A stretch of DNA of 60,274 nt from sequence record OQ791410.1, one strand, 5' to 3'. Made by a program: the position numbers and the translations under genes. Below the pieces are notes generated by a model. That model was not told where the DNA came from and did no database searches. It worked only from the letters and a program-made list of their open reading frames with translations. This DNA is from Escherichia phage phiG7. Shown here piece by piece: positions 27,530 through 60,274 of the stretch (its first letter is position 1; each line of letters opens with the position of its first letter).

Positions 27530-30500
27530 TTACCCCATTGCAGTTCTACGAATTGTTCCTCGGGATGCAAAGTCAGTAAGAACTTTATTATATCCCTGCT
27601 CCGCACCATCACGAGCTGCTTGCTGCATGGCTTGCGTGAGCGCAGCATCGCCATTTCCTTGCACCGTGATATACTGAACAATGCTAACACCACCGGACAT
27701 ATTCACGCCACCTTGTTGTGAAGATTGACTATCCAGGAAGCGGTTTAACTTGTCATTAGACGGGGCATTAAGTACACGTTCACCTTTATCCAATAACCAT
27801 GTACCTTCGCGCGGAACATTATCAATACCGTCATGCGCCATACCAGCGATTGCTAAGCCACCCACAGTAGCAGCAGACGCATAACCCATAGCTTTCACTA
27901 TACCAGCCATAGCTGCGCCCATTGTAGCACCGCCTTGCTGTGTACCCCACGCAAGCGCCGCTGATGCCGCTGTCTCCGTGTTAGCAAGGATTGATGGGAT
28001 TTGCATTGCTTTCTGTGCGGCAAACATTGCCTTATAAATAAAGTTCTGTTTACTAACACCTTCTTCCAGCCCTGACAGTATAATACCCAACGATTCCTGA
28101 GAAAAGGATATCATTCGGTTCATAAGAACTTTATCCAGATTTTCCCTTTCCATGCTCGCTTTCTTCAAGACTTGGGTTTTAGCATCTTCGTAAAGCTGAT
28201 AGTAAGCTAGATCATCGGCTCGTTGTTTTGCATTAAGCTCTGCAATCTTTGTATTTTGCTCGTACGCGATTTTTTCATAGTCTGTCATACCTTCATCTAA
28301 CAGACCCTGAGCAAACTTACGATTCTTCTTACGCTCGTCCAGTTTCTTTTGAGCTTCTTCTGCATCGTAAATTGCAGCAGCAAGACTAACGACTTCTGCT
28401 TTTTCCGCAGCCGTTGCAGACGCATTGAGCTTATTAAGTGCCACCGCTTGCGCTTTCGCTTTGGCGTTTTCCTTAACCCCCGTGGTTACTTCGTTAAGCT
28501 TGTTTCGTAAATCGTCAATAACCTTAGCGTTTTGTTGATCCGCCTTAATAGCGTCTTTTGTAGCTTTAGTCCGGTTTCTCTCTGCTTCTTCAAGATCATA
28601 GTTTTTGCCAAGAGCTTGGGCTAAATCTTGAGCATATTTAACAAGCTCTTTAGCGGATTCGCTTGTTGCCTCTGAGCTAACGTCCTGACCCATAGCTACT
28701 TTGCGAATAAGACTTCCGTATGTATCCGCATCCTTGCCCAGCGTCTGATACAGTCCACTAAGGATTGCAGCTTGGCGAGCATTGCCAGCACCCTTAACCG
28801 TGTTAACATCAATCTCACGGTTAACGTCCCCGAGTTGACCTTTAAAGCGATCCAATACTTTTTCGTCAATTAACGGACCGGATTTAATGCTAAGGACAGC
28901 CTTCATATCCGCAGCAAGCTGACGCGCTAGAGGGATTATTTTCTCTATAGCGGGGCTTGTCATTTCAAGCACATTGTTATATCGACGTTGTGCGTCTTCC
29001 GCGCGTTCAGCAGCTAGCTTGACGTTATCCGTAGCAATCTGTAAGTTCTTTTCCGCACTAGCAGTATCACGACCGGACGCAGCACGGCGTTTTAATTGTG
29101 CTTCATAGAACTTCTGTGTTTCTGTAGCAGATTTTAAAGCGGTCTGTTCCCGCTTCATTTGCTCTTCAAGTTCAGGAAGAATTGCTCTAGCTTTGACCGC
29201 GTTAGCTGCCAACTGAGCTTCAGTCATTTGCATCAGTTTTTCGCGTACACTGTCAACACTATCTGCAAATTGATTATTTTCAGCACGACCTGCTTCCAGC
29301 GACGCTTTATAGGAGTAAATTGCACCCGCTGCCAGCATTGCTACACCAACAGGACCGCCAATTAACCCCATAGCACCGCGCAGCACGCTCATTGCTGTAG
29401 CTGCCCGGCTTGCGGCTGGTACAGTTGCATTAAGAGCAGCATTGAGCGCTTGCCGCGCTTGTACGTCCGCCATAATTGCCGCAGAGTGAGCACGGGTAGC
29501 ATTGATAAGCGCAAGGCGAGCACCCGCTTCCGCTGCCGTACCCTTAGCAACCGCTAACGCACCGCGTGCAACCTGCAAAGATGCAAGGGAAGCAGCACGG
29601 TCCGCAGCCGCTTTTTGTGCAGTAACGCCAATGGAGCTTTGCATCACCGCCGTAGTTGCCGCAGTTTGTGCAGCTTCCATCTGAGATGCTTTTGCAGCAG
29701 CTATAGACGCTTTAGTCTTAGCAAGCATTGCCGTAATGATACGGGCGGTGATCACTGTGGCTAAAGCTGAACCAACCGTTACAACCGTTCCTAAGTTTTC
29801 GGATAATGCAACAAACGTCTGTCCCAATGCAGCGACCGCACCTTGAGTCTTTTGGGATTCGCCCATAAACTTAGTCAGGTTGTTTGTTGCAACTGTCCAT
29901 TGCTGGTTGAACGTTGGCATAGTGCGGCTAAATTCTTTATCAATTGTATCCGCAGCACCAGACAACGATTTGATAACCACATCTGATGTTAACTTTCCGC
30001 TGTACGCCAGCTCACGCAATTGTCCAATGGTAACGCCTAACGAATCGGACATGATTTGAGTTAAGCGCGGTGCCTGTTCTGCAACAGATCGGAATTCATC
30101 CCCGCGCAAAACACCGGATGCCATCGCTTGCGAAAACTGAATAAGAGCAGCACTTGCTTCATGGGATGTTGCACCGGAAACAATCATTGCTTTGTTAATT
30201 GTTTCCGTGATACGTCCAAGCTCCATACCAGTCATACCAGTATTCTTCATCGCACGCTGGAGACGGGAGTACAGAGTTGCAGTCGCTTCCAAGCTTGTAC
30301 GTGACCGCTGGGCAATATCAAACACGCGTTGCTGCGCATCCGCAACGGTTTCATTACCCGTACGAGCCAGTTCAAGTTTGTTGGTGAGGATAGTCCAGGA
30401 GTCCGATAGCGAAATAACACGGCTAATAGTGTCAACGCTAATCATTCCTACAATTGCAGCATCCAAACGACTTGTGACAGTTGCAAGTTCGTTAGATGTG

Positions 30501-39007: not shown

Positions 39008-40567
39008 TTAAATACCGATAGTTTTACCGACACCTGTATAAACAGCTTGATCCAGAACCATATAACGTACTTCATCGCCCATATGGTCTTCACATTCCGT
39101 ATCAACGTCGTCCTGATCTACTTCATCGCGCGGAAGACTTGGAACCAGTTCAAAGAAATAATTACAGTTATCGAAAACATACATTGCTGGATTTTCACGC
39201 GGTCCCGGCAAAGGTTTACCGTTTGCATCTTCCCGCAATGCAGCTTTAAGAAACTCACGCATTTTCTGCCATCCGCGTTTACGCGACCCAGCAGATTTAT
39301 CACTTCTCTTCCAATGGATACCGTTATACAGCTTACCGTTAAGACGGATTTTCTTCGCCATTGTTGCGGCGGTGGAGTTATTGTTCTCCAGATCCCAAAT
39401 AGAATTATCCGCAGGTCCAGGAACTACACGGTCGTGTATACCCCAGGCCAATTCCCGCTCCAGTATACCGCTTGCAATCTCTGAGTCCAGCAAATGTAGA
39501 CCTTCGTTTGTTTTACCGTTAGTGCCGTACCATTCGTTAATACGGAACAAGTCACCGCGAACAGTAGAGAAGGTAGTACCATCTTCACGTACAACATCCG
39601 AACCGTCACTAATAGCCCACCAGCCAACGGAGAATGGTTTTGAAGAACCCCAGTCGAAAGAACGTGTAATCTTCCAGCTTGATGGGATTGGGAATGGGCG
39701 TATTTTATGAACAGTGCTACGCCACAGATCATCGAACATACCGCCGGAGGTGATATCCCAGCTACCGCCTAACCATGCAGCTCGTTTGTTCGGGTCTGTG
39801 ATGGACATAAGCTCTGCAATATATTTCGGGCTCAGGTTTTTGTTCTCACGATAAGATCCGAAGATATGGCATTGCGTCGTAACCACATCTTCCTCTTTCT
39901 GCGTCCGCGGGTTAAACACTCGCGTAGTTTTCCTGAGTATCTTACCCATCGGTGCAGCGTCAATGAAGCGTTTCTTAACCCAGTTATGCCCCGCACCAAA
40001 CGGGTTACTGGTAGCAAACACTTCCAGAGGAATGTCTGGTAAATATGTAACAGTACCGTCCGGATTGATGATTGGATTATCTTCGGGTAGGAATGATGAA
40101 CGGTTACAGGACATCATTGCTTCAAACAAACGCCCGTCCGGATACTTTGTTAATTCGTTCCATCCGATAAACGGGTATTCGTGACCATGATAAGACCAAT
40201 AATCCTTTTCTTTGCAAGCAACACGGAACAGCAATTCTTCCCCAGTAGGCCAAACCCATTTATAATCAGACTTGGAACTAAGGAATTTAGCACCGTCTTT
40301 AAATTCAGGAAACCAACGCTGTGACTTAGTTACAAGGTCATCAAGGTTTTTATATTCACGGTCGAATATAATACCCTTCCAAAATTTACCGTACCCTACG
40401 CCAACATTCTTACGGAAACGCATAAGCTGGCAGTCTGTTTTTCCAGGACCGCGAGTTCCGTGGTATAAGATAATATCAGCAGGGCAGGATAGAGCGAGTG
40501 TCTGTGAACCTGGATGTGGCTTCCAGACTACTCGCGGCATGTTATCAGGTTGTCGGTTTAGCTCCAT
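39008..40567 (-). CDS. terminase large subunit
   Basis: Walker A-like HGTRGPGKT; size and position. Confidence 0.75.
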   Translation of the reverse strand: MELNRQPDNMPRVVWKPHPGSQTLALSCPADIILYHGTRGPGKTDCQLMRFRKNVGVGYGKFWKGIIFDREYKNLDDLVTKSQRWFPEFKDGAKFLSSKSDYKWVWPTGEELLFRVACKEKDYWSYHGHEYPFIGWNELTKYPDGRLFEAMMSCNRSSFLPEDNPIINPDGTVTYLPDIPLEVFATSNPFGAGHNWVKKRFIDAAPMGKILRKTTRVFNPRTQKEEDVVTTQCHIFGSYRENKNLSPKYIAELMSITDPNKRAAWLGGSWDITSGGMFDDLWRSTVHKIRPFPIPSSWKITRSFDWGSSKPFSVGWWAISDGSDVVREDGTTFSTVRGDLFRINEWYGTNGKTNEGLHLLDSEIASGILERELAWGIHDRVVPGPADNSIWDLENNNSTAATMAKKIRLNGKLYNGIHWKRSDKSAGSRKRGWQKMREFLKAALREDANGKPLPGPRENPAMYVFDNCNYFFELVPSLPRDEVDQDDVDTECEDHMGDEVRYMVLDQAVYTGVGKTIGI

Positions 40568-41102
40568 CTTCAGTCTCTTTAACTAGTCGTTGTTGAGACT
40601 CGGATGCAGTTTTTTCCCATTCGTCAATATTTGCTACAGCAGGGACTATCATTACGCCGCCTCTGTTAGTAACATCAATTTTAGCCTTCTTGGGCGCATC
40701 CAAATCATAAATTTGTGCAAGCTTGCCCAATGCAGCTACTCTAGCAGCTTGAGAAGATCCCGGTCCTGTATAATGAGCTTCACGTTTTAATGCTTCAATG
40801 ATATGCTGACGCTCTAGGTCTGCTTCAATGTTAGCTTGCTCAGAAGTACGTTGAACACGGGATCTTTCAATCTCCTTGAGCTTCCATCGAACGTAACAGT
40901 CCGTGGCAAAGCGTTGGCCAAGCTCCTGTGCAAACATAGCATTGAACCCGCATCTCATGCAAGCGTTAGTCCAATTGTAGTCGAACATATACTCAGCAAC
41001 AACTTTGTCACGTATTGCCATCTCGTCAGCGGACAAGCTATTTGCATACTGGATATAGTTCGTCCAGTCACGATCATATTGCTCTTGACTTGCCCCGTTC
41101 AT
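40545..41102 (-). CDS. putative terminase small subunit
   Basis: Position immediately upstream of large subunit. Confidence 0.45.
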   Translation of the reverse strand: MNGASQEQYDRDWTNYIQYANSLSADEMAIRDKVVAEYMFDYNWTNACMRCGFNAMFAQELGQRFATDCYVRWKLKEIERSRVQRTSEQANIEADLERQHIIEALKREAHYTGPGSSQAARVAALGKLAQIYDLDAPKKAKIDVTNRGGVMIVPAVANIDEWEKTASESQQRLVKETEDGAKPTT

Positions 41103-46544: not shown

Positions 46545-47018
46545 TCATTTACCGTGGTTTTCGTGGAAATTATACAGCAATTCCGCTTCCTTTCGTACCT
46601 TAACTGCTTCATCAAATTTGTCAAAACGACCTAAAAATACATTCTTTTTATTCGCTCTTATAGTTACAAACCATTTTAAATTCTTTCTGTCCCAACTTAC
46701 ACCAGTAACTCCGCTTGTGTTACTGATATATTTTCCTTTATTTTGACAGTTTACTACAGCACTAACTAAACGTAAATTTTCAATTCGGTCATTTTGTCGG
46801 TCATGGTCAATGTGATCAATTTCCATACCTTCCGGAATAGTTCTTCCGTGCATTAACCACACAATGCGGTGCCGTAGGTATTGCTTACCTTCAAATACTA
46901 TTCTCGTGTATCCATCCTCTTGAACACATCCTGCTCTGCTACCTGCGTTTATACATCGTCTACTTACTTTCCAATAAAGGACTCCGTCCCTATATTCAAA
47001 TATATCGTTCCAGTTCAT
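46545..47018 (-). CDS. HNH endonuclease with AP2-type DNA-binding domain
   Basis: HNH motif EIDHIDHDRQNDRIENLRLV; AP2-like GVSWDRKNLKWFVTIRANKKNVFLGRFD. Confidence 0.65.
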   Translation of the reverse strand: MNWNDIFEYRDGVLYWKVSRRCINAGSRAGCVQEDGYTRIVFEGKQYLRHRIVWLMHGRTIPEGMEIDHIDHDRQNDRIENLRLVSAVVNCQNKGKYISNTSGVTGVSWDRKNLKWFVTIRANKKNVFLGRFDKFDEAVKVRKEAELLYNFHENHGK

Positions 47019-47134: not shown

Positions 47135-47228
47135 TTCAATATCTCCGATCAGTTTTATGTCATCAATATTTTAGCAATAACCCCCAAATTTTCAATGATG
47201 AATATGTTGATAGGGGTAGTTTCTAAGG

Positions 47229-47520
47229 TGGGTCGGGTCCATCTTCGCATGTAGGTGGATATTAAAATGACAGGTGTGTATGTGGGCAACAACATAGTTG
47301 ACGAGTTAGATTTTCAAACAAGGATACTATCAGGATGGACAGGGCACTCCCCAGCGCTCCAAGTACCTGGAAAAGGATGGGTCGGGTCGCGCGGCTGGGC
47401 CTGCGTGGGTCGGTGTGCGCTGTGCGAGCTGTGCGCGACGCTGTGCGCCTGTTTCGCCCGAGCTAATGCATTACCATTACCTATGTGCATTAGCTCGCTA
47501 GCGTGGCGCTGTGTGCGTTA
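47229..47520. repeat. GC-rich short direct repeats (TGTGCG x5, GGGTCGGGTC x2) plus 9-bp inverted repeat GCTAATGCA/TGCATTAGC
   Basis: Read directly; the only plus ORF here (47255..47560) gives a Cys-rich product that looks like a repeat artefact. Confidence 0.6.
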
Positions 47521-47676
47521 TAGCACCGCTCCTCCTTTACGGGCTTTACGAGCTGCATAACGCTGTTCCATTACTTCGTTGTATTTGCGATCCCATTTAG
47601 CATCCATTACTTCGGTCACGATCAGTGCTACCAGTGGACCTACTACTGCGACGACCATCATTATTAAGATTAACAT
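47518..47676 (-). CDS. 52-aa small membrane protein
   Basis: RBS GGAG; N-terminal hydrophobic helix then basic tail. Confidence 0.3.
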   Translation of the reverse strand: MLILIMMVVAVVGPLVALIVTEVMDAKWDRKYNEVMEQRYAARKARKGGAVL

Positions 47677-47888
47677 TTTGTTTTCTCCGTTGTTTGGTTG
47701 ATGTGTGTAGTATCAGGTATCCAAGCGAAGTTGATTAGGCCAATTGTGCTATTTGCACAATTCAGCATATATACTTTTACCGCGTATCATGGCGCTATAC
47801 CAGCCGTGAGCCGCATACTCTTCACGCATAGCTGCAATCAATAACGCGTGCTGTGCGCGTGTAAGCGAGTATTTGCGTGTCATAGTAG

Positions 47889-48173
47889 TTACCCCTTAAT
47901 CGCAATGAAGAACGTGATGCCGAGCGCTTTGTGCATGATTTCGCGTGCTGCGCGGATACCTTTATTCTTCGCAGCATGAGCAGCTTGCAACGCTGTATCG
48001 TGAACGATATTTTTAGCTGTGGTGTTGTCCACGTTAAGGCGGAAAGCAAAATCGGTTAGCGCGATGCATTGGCGGTTAGCATTGCGTGCAACGACAGACC
48101 CTTTTTGCAGGTTAACGATGATTTGTTTTTCGTTATTGCAATGGTCGAAGAACGACATAGTAACGATGGACAT
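47889..48173 (-). CDS. hypothetical protein, first gene of minus arm
   Basis: RBS AAAGGGG; 94-aa ORF. Confidence 0.35.
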   Translation of the reverse strand: MSIVTMSFFDHCNNEKQIIVNLQKGSVVARNANRQCIALTDFAFRLNVDNTTAKNIVHDTALQAAHAAKNKGIRAAREIMHKALGITFFIAIKG

Positions 48174-48435
48174 GATGTAAACCCCTTTAAGTTAATTTGT
48201 AGTACCCTTGCGGTATGTGTATATAGTAGTGCTAGACCGATCATGTGTCTACACCTTTTTGCATCTTTTTATAAAAATATTTTTGGCAGCTTTATATGTA
48301 TGTGTGCGCCCGCGCGAATACTCCAGATGATGTGATGTTAGTTAGGCCGTTTGTGCTAAACATGCAAGGCAAGCATAATTTTCACTAGATGCAAAACAAT
48401 ATCAAAATAGCACTTTTGGCCTATTCAATATCACG
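48174..48435. promoter_or_regulatory. AT-rich divergent intergenic region (probable divergent promoters)
   Basis: No credible ORF; flanked by divergently oriented genes. Confidence 0.45.
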
Positions 48436-48648
48436 ATGCAAGGCTATTATTACTTCAACAAAGCAATACTGCTTAACCACATCAAGGGTTGCATCATGGA
48501 ATTCAAATTAGTGGAACTCGCGTCCGGTAAAATAGCTGGTTATGTATCTGCTCCAAGTTGGGAGGAGGCCGAAATCTTCTTAATGGGTCAGTTCGATATG
48601 TACATTAGCGAAATTTACAAGGAATACAATTTGGTACAAATTAAGTGA
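48436..48648 (+). CDS. hypothetical small protein (possible start at MEFKL, 48496)
   Basis: First plus-arm ORF. Confidence 0.3.
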   Translation: MQGYYYFNKAILLNHIKGCIMEFKLVELASGKIAGYVSAPSWEEAEIFLMGQFDMYISEIYKEYNLVQIK

Positions 48649-48716
48649 TTTATATCTTTCCTAGTTGATCTGACTGGGCAATAATAAGTCAACTTAAACA
48701 AAACGAGGATTACATC

Positions 48717-48965
48717 ATGGCTACTTCTATCATCACCAAATTTTTGGCACCAACTAACACCAAAGGCGCACGCATTGCAGTTAAAGGTTTTGGCAAGCGC
48801 AAAGTCTATAGCTGGGACTATGCTATCGACGTAACGCTTAACCATAAAGCAGCAGTACAGCAGTTCCTCAAAGCGTTTAACGCCGAAAACGACACCGACT
48901 ATGGCATCGTTGCTTTCGCAAGCATGGATATCGCAACCGCCGATTTCGTAGCAATCGTGCAATAA
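48717..48965 (+). CDS. hypothetical protein
   Basis: RBS GAGGA; 82 aa. Confidence 0.4.
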   Translation: MATSIITKFLAPTNTKGARIAVKGFGKRKVYSWDYAIDVTLNHKAAVQQFLKAFNAENDTDYGIVAFASMDIATADFVAIVQ

Positions 48966-49038
48966 GTTTTCTTATACCTTGCCTACTATCACGGTAGGCA
49001 ATAATAAGCAAACTAACTTTAACGAAAGGAGCTATACC

Positions 49039-49653
49039 ATGTCTAAAGTAACTCACCGCGAACAGGACAAAATGCGTTACACCATGAAAACGAATGCACG
49101 CCGCGCTCTTAAGACCCGCTGGGGCCAGGTTGCACGCGACGCACACGAACAGTTAATCCATCAGGACGACATTGGTTTTTACATTATCGAGAAGGAAGTC
49201 CTTCAGGTGCTGCGCGAGCACGAAAAAGCTCAAAAGCCCGAGCAGAAAGTCCCCGCACCGACCGCCGCGCCAGCTGCTAGCGTCTCGGTACTGCGCCCGA
49301 TGGTAAATCCGGAAATTGTCAAAAGCTGCCTCGAAGCTTTGGAGCAGGAGGAAGAGAAAGATATGAAACACGCAAAAGCTGCCACGCAGGTTTCTGAAAT
49401 CAAAATTGAAGAGCCAAAAGCTGCCGCGCCAAAACAAAATGCAAAAGCTGCTCGCTGCGATTTCAAAAATGGCGCTCGCAAGCCGCTTAAAGGGAAAACT
49501 GCCGAAGTGTGGGCAATGGGTGACAAGCTTCTGAAGGAACTGGGCCTCACGCCGGAGCTGAAAGAGATGAAAGCTGCAATGCCTTCTTACAACGGGACAA
49601 CGGTCGCCATTCAGTTCTACGCCTGGCGCAAATACAACGGACTGGAGGGTTAA
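49039..49653 (+). CDS. hypothetical protein
   Basis: RBS AAAGGAG before ATG at 49039. Confidence 0.4.
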   Translation: MSKVTHREQDKMRYTMKTNARRALKTRWGQVARDAHEQLIHQDDIGFYIIEKEVLQVLREHEKAQKPEQKVPAPTAAPAASVSVLRPMVNPEIVKSCLEALEQEEEKDMKHAKAATQVSEIKIEEPKAAAPKQNAKAARCDFKNGARKPLKGKTAEVWAMGDKLLKELGLTPELKEMKAAMPSYNGTTVAIQFYAWRKYNGLEG

Positions 49654-50004
49654 TTAAATGCAAGCGCTCATTCAATTCTGGCTGGACTATAATGATTTTC
49701 TGGTTGTTATACCTGTATGTAAAATTATCGCAGCAAATCAAAAATTAAAAGCAAGGTATTCACTGGCATAATCTATAACCACACTGTTCACTGACGGGCT
49801 TCTGCGGGAGCCCTAAGGATAAGAAAATGCAATTAGATAGCTTCGCAACTCAATACTTAAAAGACCTTCAACGTCGTGTAAATGAAGCTCGCGCCAAAGA
49901 AGGCCTTAAACCTCTAAACCAGTCCCAGCTTGTTGGCGAATTAATCGAGCAAGCTGCTACTCAGTCAACATTATTTGTTGGCTCTGTATTCGTCCGCAAA
50001 TAAA

Positions 50005-50677
50005 TTCTAACTTCTCCGGGCCAGCCCTCCTACTGGTCCGGTTAACCGCGCAATAAAGTCCTCCTCCAATATCCCGCGATTAAGCGCATTATAGCTTGAT
50101 ATACCTTCCGATCACAATAGTTCAATAAATTTCCCTCAAAAGCACTTGACTTCTCATTTTTGATCTGCATCCGTTCAGGTTTATGAAGTTTTATATGGTT
50201 TATATAATGACCATAAACTCGTCAAATAATACCAATAGGTAATATATGCATTAATAATAAATCCTTATTTTATATATATTTATAGTTATTATTTACTATT
50301 AGTTTAATTATATTTGTTTTAGTTAGTTGACTGAAAGTTTATAAGTTTATAGGGAGCGAGCCAACCGAGATTTCATAAAATGCATAGTATAGTGGTATAG
50401 TGACATTCACTATGTTTCACTACTACTACTAATTCTTTGTTTGAAAACGGGGTAATAAGGGGAAAACCGTAAACTTATAAACTTTGCTCTGTGTCAAAAA
50501 TAAAAATTAGTGAATAGTGAAATAGTGGTTTATAGTGGCAAACTTTTACAAAGCCAGTAACGGCGCACTATACACATTTTGCCCACTATGTACGCCACTA
50601 AGCACTATATTAAAACAATCCTTGCAAATAGCTAATGTCTGTTTTATAGTGGCTTCACCAGTTGACTAGGAGGATTT
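50005..50677. repeat. AT-rich intergenic region with at least 8 TATAGTG(G) copies in both orientations and a 16-bp inverted repeat pair (50334-50349 / 50470-50485)
   Basis: Direct reading; no ORF of 60 aa or more. Confidence 0.7.
50622..50650 (+). promoter_or_regulatory. sigma70-like promoter candidate
   Basis: -35 TTGCAA, 17-bp spacer, -10 TATAGT, about 27 bp upstream of RBS AGGAGG of the 50678 gene. Confidence 0.45.
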
Positions 50678-51421
50678 ATGAGCGAAGAAACTATCACATC
50701 CGCACCATTAACATCTAAAACTGTGGTTAAAGATTTGTGTTTTGCTGCGTGGGTTGTGCAAGCTTGCTCGCAGTTGCGCGGTGCGCCAACCAAATCACAG
50801 GCGCTTGCTATGGTGGAGGATTACTTCAACGAAGATGTGGAACAGCCTGTTAAAAAAGCTGTAAGACAAAAAGCGGGAAAGCTGGATGCAGAACGGGCGG
50901 CTTTCCTTGCATGGGTTAGCGATAAGCTAGGACATGATCTGGATGCCAAAGAGCTTCGCAGCTATACGGGCAAATTCAATTACCACATGGGCAAGGGTAA
51001 CGACCCATATGAAGAAGCATTTAAGGTAAAAGAAGATAAGGGTAAGGCGGGGCGCAAGGAAAACGTCGATCTTAAAGCATGGATAGAGCGCCAAGCCTTG
51101 CTCAAAGGAGATCCTTTGACAGATAAGGAAGCGGATAAATTGACACATCGTTGGTACAGGATGCGCCGGAGCGGCGATGTTCGGGACTGGGATAATCGCG
51201 GTCGCTGGCCTACCTGTTCCCTGCACCATTATGAAACCGCTACTGCTATCCGTGTCAAGCTCGGCGCTCATTGGGTAGACCTTGCACTATACAGGGATGC
51301 TGAGCAGGCTAAAAATATTCTTCCGAACATTGATAATTGGCTTATTAGCTTAAGACAGGGAAGGGAGCCGCAGGACGTTATGTTAGAAGTTAGTAACCAT
51401 ATTATCACAACTCCGCAATAA
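50678..51421 (+). CDS. hypothetical protein (first gene downstream of iteron region)
   Basis: Strong RBS AGGAGG; 247 aa. Confidence 0.45.
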   Translation: MSEETITSAPLTSKTVVKDLCFAAWVVQACSQLRGAPTKSQALAMVEDYFNEDVEQPVKKAVRQKAGKLDAERAAFLAWVSDKLGHDLDAKELRSYTGKFNYHMGKGNDPYEEAFKVKEDKGKAGRKENVDLKAWIERQALLKGDPLTDKEADKLTHRWYRMRRSGDVRDWDNRGRWPTCSLHHYETATAIRVKLGAHWVDLALYRDAEQAKNILPNIDNWLISLRQGREPQDVMLEVSNHIITTPQ

Positions 51422-59293: not shown

Positions 59294-60208
59294 ATGTCTT
59301 TTAAACCACATTTAGCAACTGACGCGGTTGAAGAAAAGATTAAGTTTCCGTGCTGCATACTGCCTAAAATTGACGGTGTACGCGGTTTAAATCCGGATGG
59401 GCAAATAGTAGGGCGTAGCTTAAAGTTGTTTAAAAACCGCCATACAAGCGCAATTTTCAGCGGTCCCCAGTACATGGGCTATGACGGTGAACTTGCAGCA
59501 GGGGTGGAGACAGATCCGGACCTGTGCCGTAAAACAACCAGTGCGGTAAACACAATTGAAGGTGAACCGTTCCTGAAATGGCACATCTTTGATCTGTGCG
59601 CTGAAAGTGTTGCAGGGATGGGCTATGAAGCACGCTACAACATGATGAAAGATTTCATAACCACACAGCACGCGAAAGGTGAACTGCTCGATTTGCAAGT
59701 TGTGCCCATGTATGTGGTTAAGTCTTTAGAAGAGCTGCTCTACTGGGAAAACATCTGGCTTGATATGGGTTATGAAGGTATTATTATCCGTGATCCAAAC
59801 AAGCCTTACAAACATGGGCGCGGTACAGTTCGAGAAGGCGGATACCTTCGTATTAAACGCTTTATTCAGGAAGATGCTATTGTCCTCGATATTATTGAGG
59901 GTGAAACTAATCTTAATGAAGCCACTGTTAACGAGCTGGGAAGGACTACACGATCTTCACATCAGGAAAATAAAGTTCCTAACGGTATGATCGGGACGCT
60001 TGTTTGTAAAGACGTTAAGACTGGCAATACAATCAACGTTAGTCCTGGTAAACTAACACAAGAGGATAAGATTTATTATTGGAATAACCCTGACAAGATT
60101 AAAGGTCGGACTATTTCATATAAACACTTTCCTCATGGCGTTAAAGATAAACCGCGTTTTGCTAACTTTATGCATTTCCGCGATGAAACTGATCAGGCTT
60201 TAGATTAA
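59294..60208 (+). CDS. ATP-dependent DNA ligase
   Basis: Adenylation motif KIDGVRG, motif EGIIIR, C-terminal OB-like region. Confidence 0.75.
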   Translation: MSFKPHLATDAVEEKIKFPCCILPKIDGVRGLNPDGQIVGRSLKLFKNRHTSAIFSGPQYMGYDGELAAGVETDPDLCRKTTSAVNTIEGEPFLKWHIFDLCAESVAGMGYEARYNMMKDFITTQHAKGELLDLQVVPMYVVKSLEELLYWENIWLDMGYEGIIIRDPNKPYKHGRGTVREGGYLRIKRFIQEDAIVLDIIEGETNLNEATVNELGRTTRSSHQENKVPNGMIGTLVCKDVKTGNTINVSPGKLTQEDKIYYWNNPDKIKGRTISYKHFPHGVKDKPRFANFMHFRDETDQALD

Positions 60209-60274
60209 AAAGTAATTGAGGGTTCAAAGTATATTACGTTACAATGAGCACGAACTTAAAAGAGAGGCGTTAAA

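Follow-up and report, generated by a model that had tools for sequence, protein, structure and literature searches.

A predicted virion chromosome end at the inner boundary of a putative direct terminal repeat in the Seuratvirus coliphage phiG7

We analyzed the sequence of Escherichia phage phiG7 (OQ791410.1), a Seuratvirus (Queuovirinae) coliphage whose nearest relatives are SD04, Skure, WildeMaa, CAjan, and Seurat; the whole stretch of 60,274 nucleotides is the window, and coordinates refer to it unless another record is named. An earlier reading of the sequence alone (the original prediction) drew attention to a GC-rich region of short repeats (47140-47520) and proposed that it is a terminase recognition site (pac or cos), the target of an HNH endonuclease, or a binding array for a late promoter or its activator. 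We assign the region, with a probability of roughly 0.8, as a terminase cut site that would give one end of the virion chromosome, that is, the inner boundary of a direct terminal repeat (DTR) of about 3.1 kb; with the same confidence, the virion end is expected within ~30 nt of position 47341. The first of the three candidates survives in altered form: in relatives an end does map here, as the boundary of a long direct repeat and not as a cos site or, probably, a pac site. The element is an ordinary one of a known kind that is newly placed for Seuratvirus, and it involves no new biological principle.

The window is a complete circular assembly in which the first 127 bases recur at the end (1-127 are identical to 60148-60274), leaving 60,147 bp of unique sequence. 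The length of this overlap is typical of a k-mer overlap left by an assembler, so the ends of the window are not physical ends; because the assembly is collapsed into a circle with a 127-bp overlap, a terminal repeat of phiG7 itself is not visible in it. Literature searches for Seuratvirus termini returned nothing direct, and the lead was the paper on the Nonagvirus 9g (vide infra).

The record of ECP2304 (Seuratvirus) has an exact DTR of 3,695 bp with its inner boundary directly after TACTATCAGGATGGAT, that is, TTACTATCAGGATGGAT followed across the cut by AAGG; the record of Hafnia phage yong3 has an exact DTR of 3,424 bp with its inner boundary directly after TACTATCAGGATGGAC, that is, GATACTATCAGGATGGAC followed across the cut by ATCC. 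The two inner boundaries fall at the same nucleotide of a conserved motif, TACTATCAGGATGGA followed by C or T, that corresponds to 47340/47341 in the window; the yong3 element is highly diverged, with about one third alignable by blastn. The length of the yong3 repeat was forecast exactly (3,424 bp) from the ECP2304 boundary before the ends were fetched, as was that of the HdSG1 repeat (3,363 bp) from the 9g coordinate before inspection of that record. The motif in the window is identical to the yong3 boundary motif (16/16 positions), so the end in phiG7 is predicted at 47340/47341.

The Nonagvirus ends lie in a homologous element. Kulikov et al. (2014; PMC4276943) reported a read-start hotspot in 9g at position 28,243 (91 starts, one orientation), within the intergenic DNA that separates the two arms; other reads cross this position, which implies terminal redundancy, and the RefSeq record retains the published numbering. 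In the orientation of the window, the 9g end reads X1 and AGATCTAA before the cut, then GAGCC, GTTACTATAACG, and X2 (X1 and X2 are defined below). In HdSG1 and HdK1 (Korf et al., 2019; PMC6563267), whose records are over-long, the DTRs (3,363 and 3,367 bp, respectively) have the 9g nucleotide as their inner boundary. In iggy, a DTR of 1,091 bp was mapped with Nanopore reads (PMC10484667); its record starts with CTCATAGTAAGG and continues to TAACGCCCG, which is 22 nt from the end compared with 23 nt in 9g. In all five cases the polarity is identical: the end separates the head of the late arm, which is outside the repeat, from the repeat itself, which continues into the early arm. A virion end at this site is found in relatives only (ECP2304 and yong3; 9g, HdSG1, and HdK1), and the same sequence at both ends, with a defined second boundary, is found in four records (3,363-3,695 bp).

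The outer ends of HdSG1 and HdK1 agree within 3 nt, and ATGGGTAG is located 20-21 nt outside the outer boundary in both ECP2304 and yong3; these defined outer boundaries argue for site-specific ends. When the ECP2304 outer junction is mapped onto the window, the first DTR base falls at ~50,401 (the DTRs of the relatives are 3,363-3,695 bp). The predicted DTR of phiG7 (47341..50400, plus strand; ~3.06 kb) takes its inner boundary from ECP2304 and yong3, and its outer boundary is approximate; it would contain the GC-rich block, three small minus-strand open reading frames (ORFs), the region with the divergent early promoters, and the first genes of the plus arm. The similarity between ECP2304 and the window breaks at the outer boundary (~50,400), within a ~500-bp AT-rich (~30% GC) non-coding stretch of the plus arm (50170-50680) that contains TATAGTG/CACTAT repeats in both orientations. 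This stretch is a candidate for the second terminus and possibly an origin or a regulatory array.

The putative site is described by three motifs on the plus strand. X1 is the G-rich sequence TGGGTCGGGTC (47229..47239), which is outside the predicted repeat and ~100 nt from the predicted cut; Y is TACTATCAGGATGGAC (47325..47340), the predicted terminase cleavage motif and the inner DTR boundary in the relatives; X2 is a second TGGGTCGGGTC (47378..47388), which is inside the predicted repeat and whose core, GGTCGGGT, starts 39 nt from the predicted cut. The window has a single Y, and each of the 23 distinct copies that were collected contains this motif; TGGGTCGGGTC has only two occurrences on both strands of the 60-kb genome (47229 and 47378). 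X-like sequences (GGTGGGGT, GTGGGGTG, and GGTGAGGTG) are found on the X1 side of the cut in Skure, yong3, PSTCR7, and 9g. X2 is 38 nt from the cut in yong3, 39 nt in ECP2304, and 40 nt in the three Nonagvirus phages (9g, HdSG1, and HdK1), and the spacing between Y and X2 is 53-56 nt in Seuratvirus and PSTCR7; the sequence around the cut is, then, conserved among phages that share the terminase, in Y and, across the two genera, in the distance from the cut to X2. An AGATTT motif (47308..47313, plus strand) is invariant in Seuratvirus (alignment A1, which contains eight relatives); its Nonagvirus homologue, AGATCT, directly precedes the mapped cut in 9g, HdSG1, and HdK1 (AGATCTAA, cut, GAGCC).

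The layout X, TACTAT..ATGG (Y), X recurs at the syntenic position even in the AT-rich Providencia phage PSTCR7, and this recurrence pointed to a site that acts at the level of DNA. In PSTCR7 (positions 1890-2535 of the collected locus, L144), a 640-bp unannotated gap contains two copies of TAGTGGGGTG that are 111 nt apart and flank TTACTATGTAAAATGG, followed by a dense TGTTATT array with ~15-bp spacing; the gap is probably the equivalent terminus region of Craquatrovirus, as a prediction only. In the syntenic regions of Vid5 and BRET, no clear X or Y motifs were found with simple patterns; the terminus region of BRET was matched by the 9g terminus query. An X1-Y-X2 architecture with a fixed distance between the cut and X2 was not found in the literature that was searched.

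As a working model, terminase would cut the concatemer directly after TACTATCAGGATGGAC (47340/47341), and the packaged DNA would run to the right through the GC-rich block, the small leftward genes, the divergent early promoters, and the first early genes. Y would be the cleavage motif, and X1 and X2, which bracket it, would be recognition sites, presumably for the small terminase subunit; X2, 39 nt inside the repeat, may determine how far away the cut is made. The TGTGCG/CTGTK array, the hairpin, and GCTGTGTGCGTTAT (within the last 58 nt of the block) would be accessory features on the side that is packaged first, dispensable for the cut; they may, for example, provide additional binding sites for terminase or a host factor (as in lambda cosB), control leftward transcription, or protect the end. 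Packaging would duplicate the repeat, as happens in other phages whose terminal repeats are exact.

The GC-rich non-coding block (47341..47521, plus strand; about 61-63% GC) shares 93-98% identity in ~26 records with mosaic flanks, and we infer that it is the terminal 181 bp of the DTR. Every feature listed in the original prediction was found within 1-3 nt of the position given for it. The GC-rich character was confirmed (47325-47521 is 61% GC compared with 44.4% for the genome, within the top 0.5% of 197-nt genome windows), as was the cluster of four TGTGCG copies in 34 bp (starts at 47414, 47421, 47430, and 47442). A fifth copy had been placed at 47509 and is at 47512; the pair of GGGTCGGGTC is real, with positions 47230 and 47379, and is part of the 11-mer TGGGTCGGGTC; and the inverted repeat, described as 9 bp, is 12 perfect bp. 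Two corrections concern the extent and setting of the region. It had been placed at the head of the minus arm, which is not quite so, because three small minus-strand ORFs lie upstream of it; also, the left half of the interval (47140-47320) varies among relatives, so that the conserved part is 47325-47521 plus X1 at 47229. With respect to the cut, the GGGTCGGGTC pair (X1 and X2, on either side of the cut) is the only one of the listed features that belongs to the core shared between genera; the cleavage motif TACTATCAGGATGGAC had not been listed, and the TGTGCG array is not part of the core.

The array (47414..47447, plus strand) consists of four TGTGCG copies, three of which belong to the longer GCTGTGCG, together with strand-specific CTGTK repeats; in the first 260 nt of the predicted repeat, CTGTK is found six times on the plus strand and never on the minus strand. 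The block holds five of the 20 plus-strand TGTGCG copies of the genome. The largest 34-bp TGTGCG cluster in 300 first-order Markov genomes contained one or two copies (four are observed), and none of 5,000 sequences simulated with the composition of the block reached five TGTGCG per 197 nt. The inverted repeat (47459..47497) pairs CGAGCTAATGCA (47459-47470) with TGCATTAGCTCG (47486-47497) across a 15-nt loop that, on the minus strand, holds GGTAATGGTAAT; the annotation of SA80RD calls this hairpin a terminator. The TGTGCG cluster, the paired TGGGTCGGGTC, and the 12-bp hairpin are far beyond chance. The right edge of the block is GCTGTGTGCGTTAT (47508..47521, plus strand), which every one of the eight Seuratvirus sequences in alignment A1 has, whether type A or type B (described below); it touches or overlaps the stop codon of the minus-strand gene that adjoins upstream, whichever gene that is; in the window, the TTA at 47518-47520 is the TAA stop of the ORF 47676..47518.

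In alignment A1 the conserved block (47325-47521) is sharply bounded, with a variable left neighbor and differing genes as the right flank. Approximately 35 phage records carry the block, both flanks being mosaic, and a two-motif pattern scan added 13 true metagenomic or viral loci, most of them near-identical; a 15-mer scan of viral contigs was too unspecific. The right end of the block always coincides with the stop codon of the upstream minus-strand gene or precedes it by a few nt. The block occurs as two alleles: type A, the allele in the window, is 197 bp with 61% GC and contains the TGTGCG array; type B, found in Skure, SHIN8, SA126VB, and ECP2304, is 335 bp with 44% GC. Sequence common to the two is limited to ~95 nt at the start and 58 nt at the end. 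Type B has hairpins of its own (ACGAAT..ATTCGT and GGCCGTACG..CGTACAGCC, e.g., in Skure). STP-SP5 (71% identity) and yong3 are divergent copies that resemble type A. The TGTGCG array is kept in these two and replaced in type B; CTGTK is enriched and strongly strand-specific in type A, STP-SP5, and yong3 and weak in type B, Nonagvirus, and iggy. The hairpin is retained in STP-SP5 with an altered inner stem (GAGCTAGCC/GGCTAGCTC), and its left arm is lost in type B. The original prediction had named two outcomes that would count against it, genome termini that map elsewhere and repeats that are not conserved in relatives; in the relatives, the termini map here, and the repeats are conserved in part.

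Several points weigh against assignment of the region as a chromosome end. In phiG7, the position of the end is placed by homology alone. The repeats of ECP2304 and yong3 were taken from GenBank records; yong3 is labeled circular, and a literature search found no paper for ECP2304. The 9g data consist of a single hotspot and an odd 1.5-fold coverage step, and the authors left the repeat length unresolved (PMC4276943). The genera differ in where the cut falls relative to TACTAT: in Nonagvirus it precedes TTACTAT by 15 nt, and in Seuratvirus it comes 16 nt beyond the start of TACTAT. For the large terminase subunit, the Pfam match is weak and generic (Terminase_6N, E = 5e-6) and does not indicate a packaging type. 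The roles of X and Y as recognition and cleavage motifs are proposed from their sequence and spacing, with confidence far below that for the position of the end. Finally, type-B phages whose end maps to the same place (e.g., ECP2304) lack the TGTGCG array and the high GC content, which are 75-180 bp inside the predicted repeat; these features are, therefore, not required for cutting, and the favored explanation leaves them unaccounted for.

On a different view of the block, which we consider unlikely, the terminal 180 bp may be an exchangeable functional cassette at the tip of the chromosome and not a set of terminase sites. The two unrelated alleles (A and B) both have the invariant Y/X2 on one side and the invariant last 58 nt on the other. 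Such a cassette, if real, might protect the end from exonucleases, act as a decoy against a host defense system, or serve as a switch that halts leftward early transcription into the late genes in only one copy of the repeat.

The possibility that the block acts mainly as RNA, that is, as a structured element or as a Rho-utilization/terminator region that keeps leftward early transcription within the repeat and out of the late genes, is likewise improbable; an RNA role is compatible with a role as a terminus. On the transcribed strand, the block comes immediately after the stop of the upstream gene in every phage, and the minus-strand transcript is C-rich; the inner stem of the STP-SP5 hairpin is compensated, and there are G-to-A changes whose pairing survives only on the minus strand, as G-U; and the annotators of SA80RD called the hairpin a terminator. 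In 9g, the divergent promoters are inside the repeat, as remarked by Kulikov et al. (PMC4276943), and this position means that some additional control of transcription is needed. However, the folding energy is no better than that of shuffled sequences on either strand (z = −0.66 and −0.93), no Rfam match was found at the gathering or E-value threshold, and the RNAalifold covariation term is unfavorable (+2.45), with double changes in three of 42 pairs and many pairs broken in divergent copies. The hairpin is not followed by a U-tract on either strand, which disposes of an intrinsic terminator; its left arm is lost in type B, and the G content is high for a rut site. A structured RNA is not supported by the folds or by the alignment, in which a single compensated variant is confined to the local hairpin. 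The early hints were contradictory: the G-U asymmetry of the 3' hairpin favors the minus strand, and a 5' hairpin common to types A and B, with helices swapped, favors the plus strand in type B, with STP-SP5 breaking the helix. CsrA-like GGA motifs and a G-quadruplex on the plus strand were also discarded, neither being conserved in type B, and ARAGORN found no tRNA or tmRNA in the region.

A headful pac site would involve one specific cut at Y and heads filled to ~105-106%, such that the repeats are the redundancy of the first headful; we regard this as improbable. The single hotspot in one orientation and the coverage step in 9g are the pattern expected of pac phages, repeats of 3.4-3.7 kb are 5.6-6.2% of the genome, which is typical of headful redundancy, and the related phage Vid5 was reported to be circularly permuted (PMC6266253). 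The outer ends, however, are sharp and reproducible (within 3 nt in HdSG1 and HdK1; a motif at a fixed distance in ECP2304 and yong3), whereas headful packaging would leave ragged ends that do not assemble into exact repeats, and the repeat in iggy, mapped with long reads, is just 1,091 bp. A cos site was rejected: the relatives carry direct repeats of 1.1-3.7 kb, and 9g reads cross the end.

Equally improbable is the idea that the repeats are iterons of a replication origin or sites for a phage regulator, for example, an array that serves the adjacent leftward promoter. Short one-stranded repeats, the dense TGTTAT array at the same place in PSTCR7, the global minimum of the cumulative GC skew at 47,193, and a promoter-like site (47195..47168, minus strand) are consistent with it. 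Against these, the skew minimum is a flat plateau (47.2-50 kb) for which gene orientation is a confounder, type B has other sequence in place of the array, the array differs in Nonagvirus, no AT-rich unwinding element adjoins it, and the AT-rich TATAGTG region at 50.2-50.7 kb is a better iteron-like candidate. The proposal of a promoter or activator array is neither supported nor excluded by these observations; the promoter-like site is just outside the element. A sigma-70 promoter that uses TACTAT as its -10 element was rejected, as the sole -35-like hexamer (TTGACG) is 21 nt away; a minus-strand extended -10 sequence (TGATAGTAT) overlaps Y.

Very little probability remains for a small minus-strand protein encoded by a 58-aa ORF (47314..47490, minus strand) that is homologous to the N-terminal part of CAjan gp75 and Seurat gp70 and is probably not a gene. 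The ORF is open in most type-A phages and annotated in several records, and two of the TGTGCG spacings are multiples of three. But indels and stops interrupt the frame in STP-SP5, yong3, and every type-B copy, with conservation in nucleotide islands; SD04 has a 1-nt insertion; the C-terminal end is set by the first stop in the unrelated flank (58-126 aa); and the opposite strand is equally open, as expected of GC-rich DNA. On a six-frame comparison of 12 homologues, a coding gene was rejected. Proteins are annotated across the terminus or block in CAjan (gp75, 92 aa; L001 2397-2675), Seurat (gp70, 126 aa; L002 2286-2666), and WildeMaa (bas23_0080; L005 2106-2321), with lengths of 71-126 aa in the reference genomes; they are probably artefacts of stop-poor GC-rich DNA.

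The HNH-target candidate is not supported and is just as remote: the element is ~320 bp from the HNH_3 gene, and HNH genes are near the repeat boundaries in HdK1, yong3, and ECP2304, but most phages with the element have no HNH gene at the locus (a handful do), homing sites are normally present in genomes without the endonuclease and disrupted or altered in its carriers whereas the element is intact with and without the gene, and recombination hotspots at genome ends are a better explanation of why HNH genes cluster there. HNH-assisted packaging of the HK97 type, in which the HNH gene is reportedly conserved beside the terminase genes, was also rejected, since the HNH gene occurs sporadically, is separated from terS by 5.4 kb, and is missing at the locus in most relatives with the same end. 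HNH genes occur 0.2-1.1 kb from the repeat boundaries at non-homologous positions in the window (46545-47018), HdK1 (L154 3536-4015), yong3 (L157 1-512), and ECP2304 (L149 750-1274); genome ends in Queuovirinae may be hotspots for insertion or recombination of HNH elements.

The region 47140-47520 is located between minus-strand ORFs for hydrophobic peptides of 31 and 52 aa, with the HNH_3 homing endonuclease gene (46545..47018, minus strand; Pfam HNH_3, E = 3e−17) further to the left and outside the element. An HNH gene is present at this locus in Skure, WildeMaa, SA80RD, and Dru_SM1 and absent in CAjan, Seurat, slur01, and SD04. A sigma-70-like promoter (47168..47195, minus strand; TTGAAA, 16-nt spacer, TAAAAT, with TG), identified by a 10/12 consensus match only, is outside the predicted repeat and would drive the 31-aa ORF, the HNH gene, and the remainder of the minus arm. 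The terS gene (41102..40545, minus strand) is ~6 kb from the predicted end. The three small ORFs upstream of the block (48173..47889, 47883..47749, and 47676..47518, minus strand) have a neutral to positive GC skew, whereas the other minus-arm genes are strongly negative; this unusual skew (47518-48173) places the minimum of the cumulative skew (47,193) near the terminus and not at the switch in gene orientation (~48.3 kb).

Assignment of the region as a chromosome end would give a physical genome end and a terminal repeat to Seuratvirus, a common genus of coliphages. Most of its records (among them the type species Seurat, CAjan, and the members of the BASEL collection) are deposited as arbitrarily opened circles that start at terS, and in most relatives the terminus is unannotated or misannotated as a gene. 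The end and the ~3-kb repeat bear on the correct genome length and on gene dosage; for the engineering of dpreQ0-modified phages, edits within the repeat would be needed in both copies. Both divergent early promoters would be inside the repeat, making it relevant to early transcription, and X1-Y-X2 with its 38-40-nt distance from the cut to X2 is a testable recognition architecture common to two genera.

Among known systems, the closest is the homologous element in Nonagvirus (9g, HdSG1, and HdK1), at the same genomic position (the head of the late arm) and with the same polarity. The genera share X motifs on both sides, AGATYT, TTACTAT, and a cut ~40 nt from X2, and the 3.36-kb Nonagvirus repeat contains the divergent early promoters; however, the two are alignable only in motif islands, and the Nonagvirus element lacks the GC-rich block and TGTGCG array, its repeat starting instead with five copies of TTACTAT and three of GTTACCTGGTAT. 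Phages T7 and T3 reportedly have a concatemer junction in which an exact terminal repeat is flanked by arrays of short repeats (SRL and SRR). The likeness includes exact, sequence-defined ends with a repeat that is duplicated during packaging, short one-stranded repeat arrays beside the boundary, and early promoters near the end; in contrast, the T7 repeat is 160 bp, the predicted repeat here is ~3 kb and carries genes, kinship of the terminases is not demonstrable, and there is no sequence similarity. The cleavage site bracketed by recognition elements, with a multi-site binding region on the side packaged first, is by analogy reminiscent of lambda cos (cosQ-cosN-cosB), although lambda has 12-nt cohesive ends and no terminal redundancy and the relatives here have kilobase-long repeats. 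Short repeated motifs on both sides of the cleavage site are also found in the pac sites of P1 and SPP1, where they are bound by the small terminase subunit; those phages, however, package by the headful mechanism and have permuted genomes, and their pac is in or beside terS instead of ~6 kb away. Kilobase repeats that hold the earliest-expressed genes are a feature of T5 and SPO1, although their repeats are 10-13 kb and their cleavage signals are non-homologous; the related phage S0112 was scored as 'T5-like' by PhageTerm (PMC6893657).

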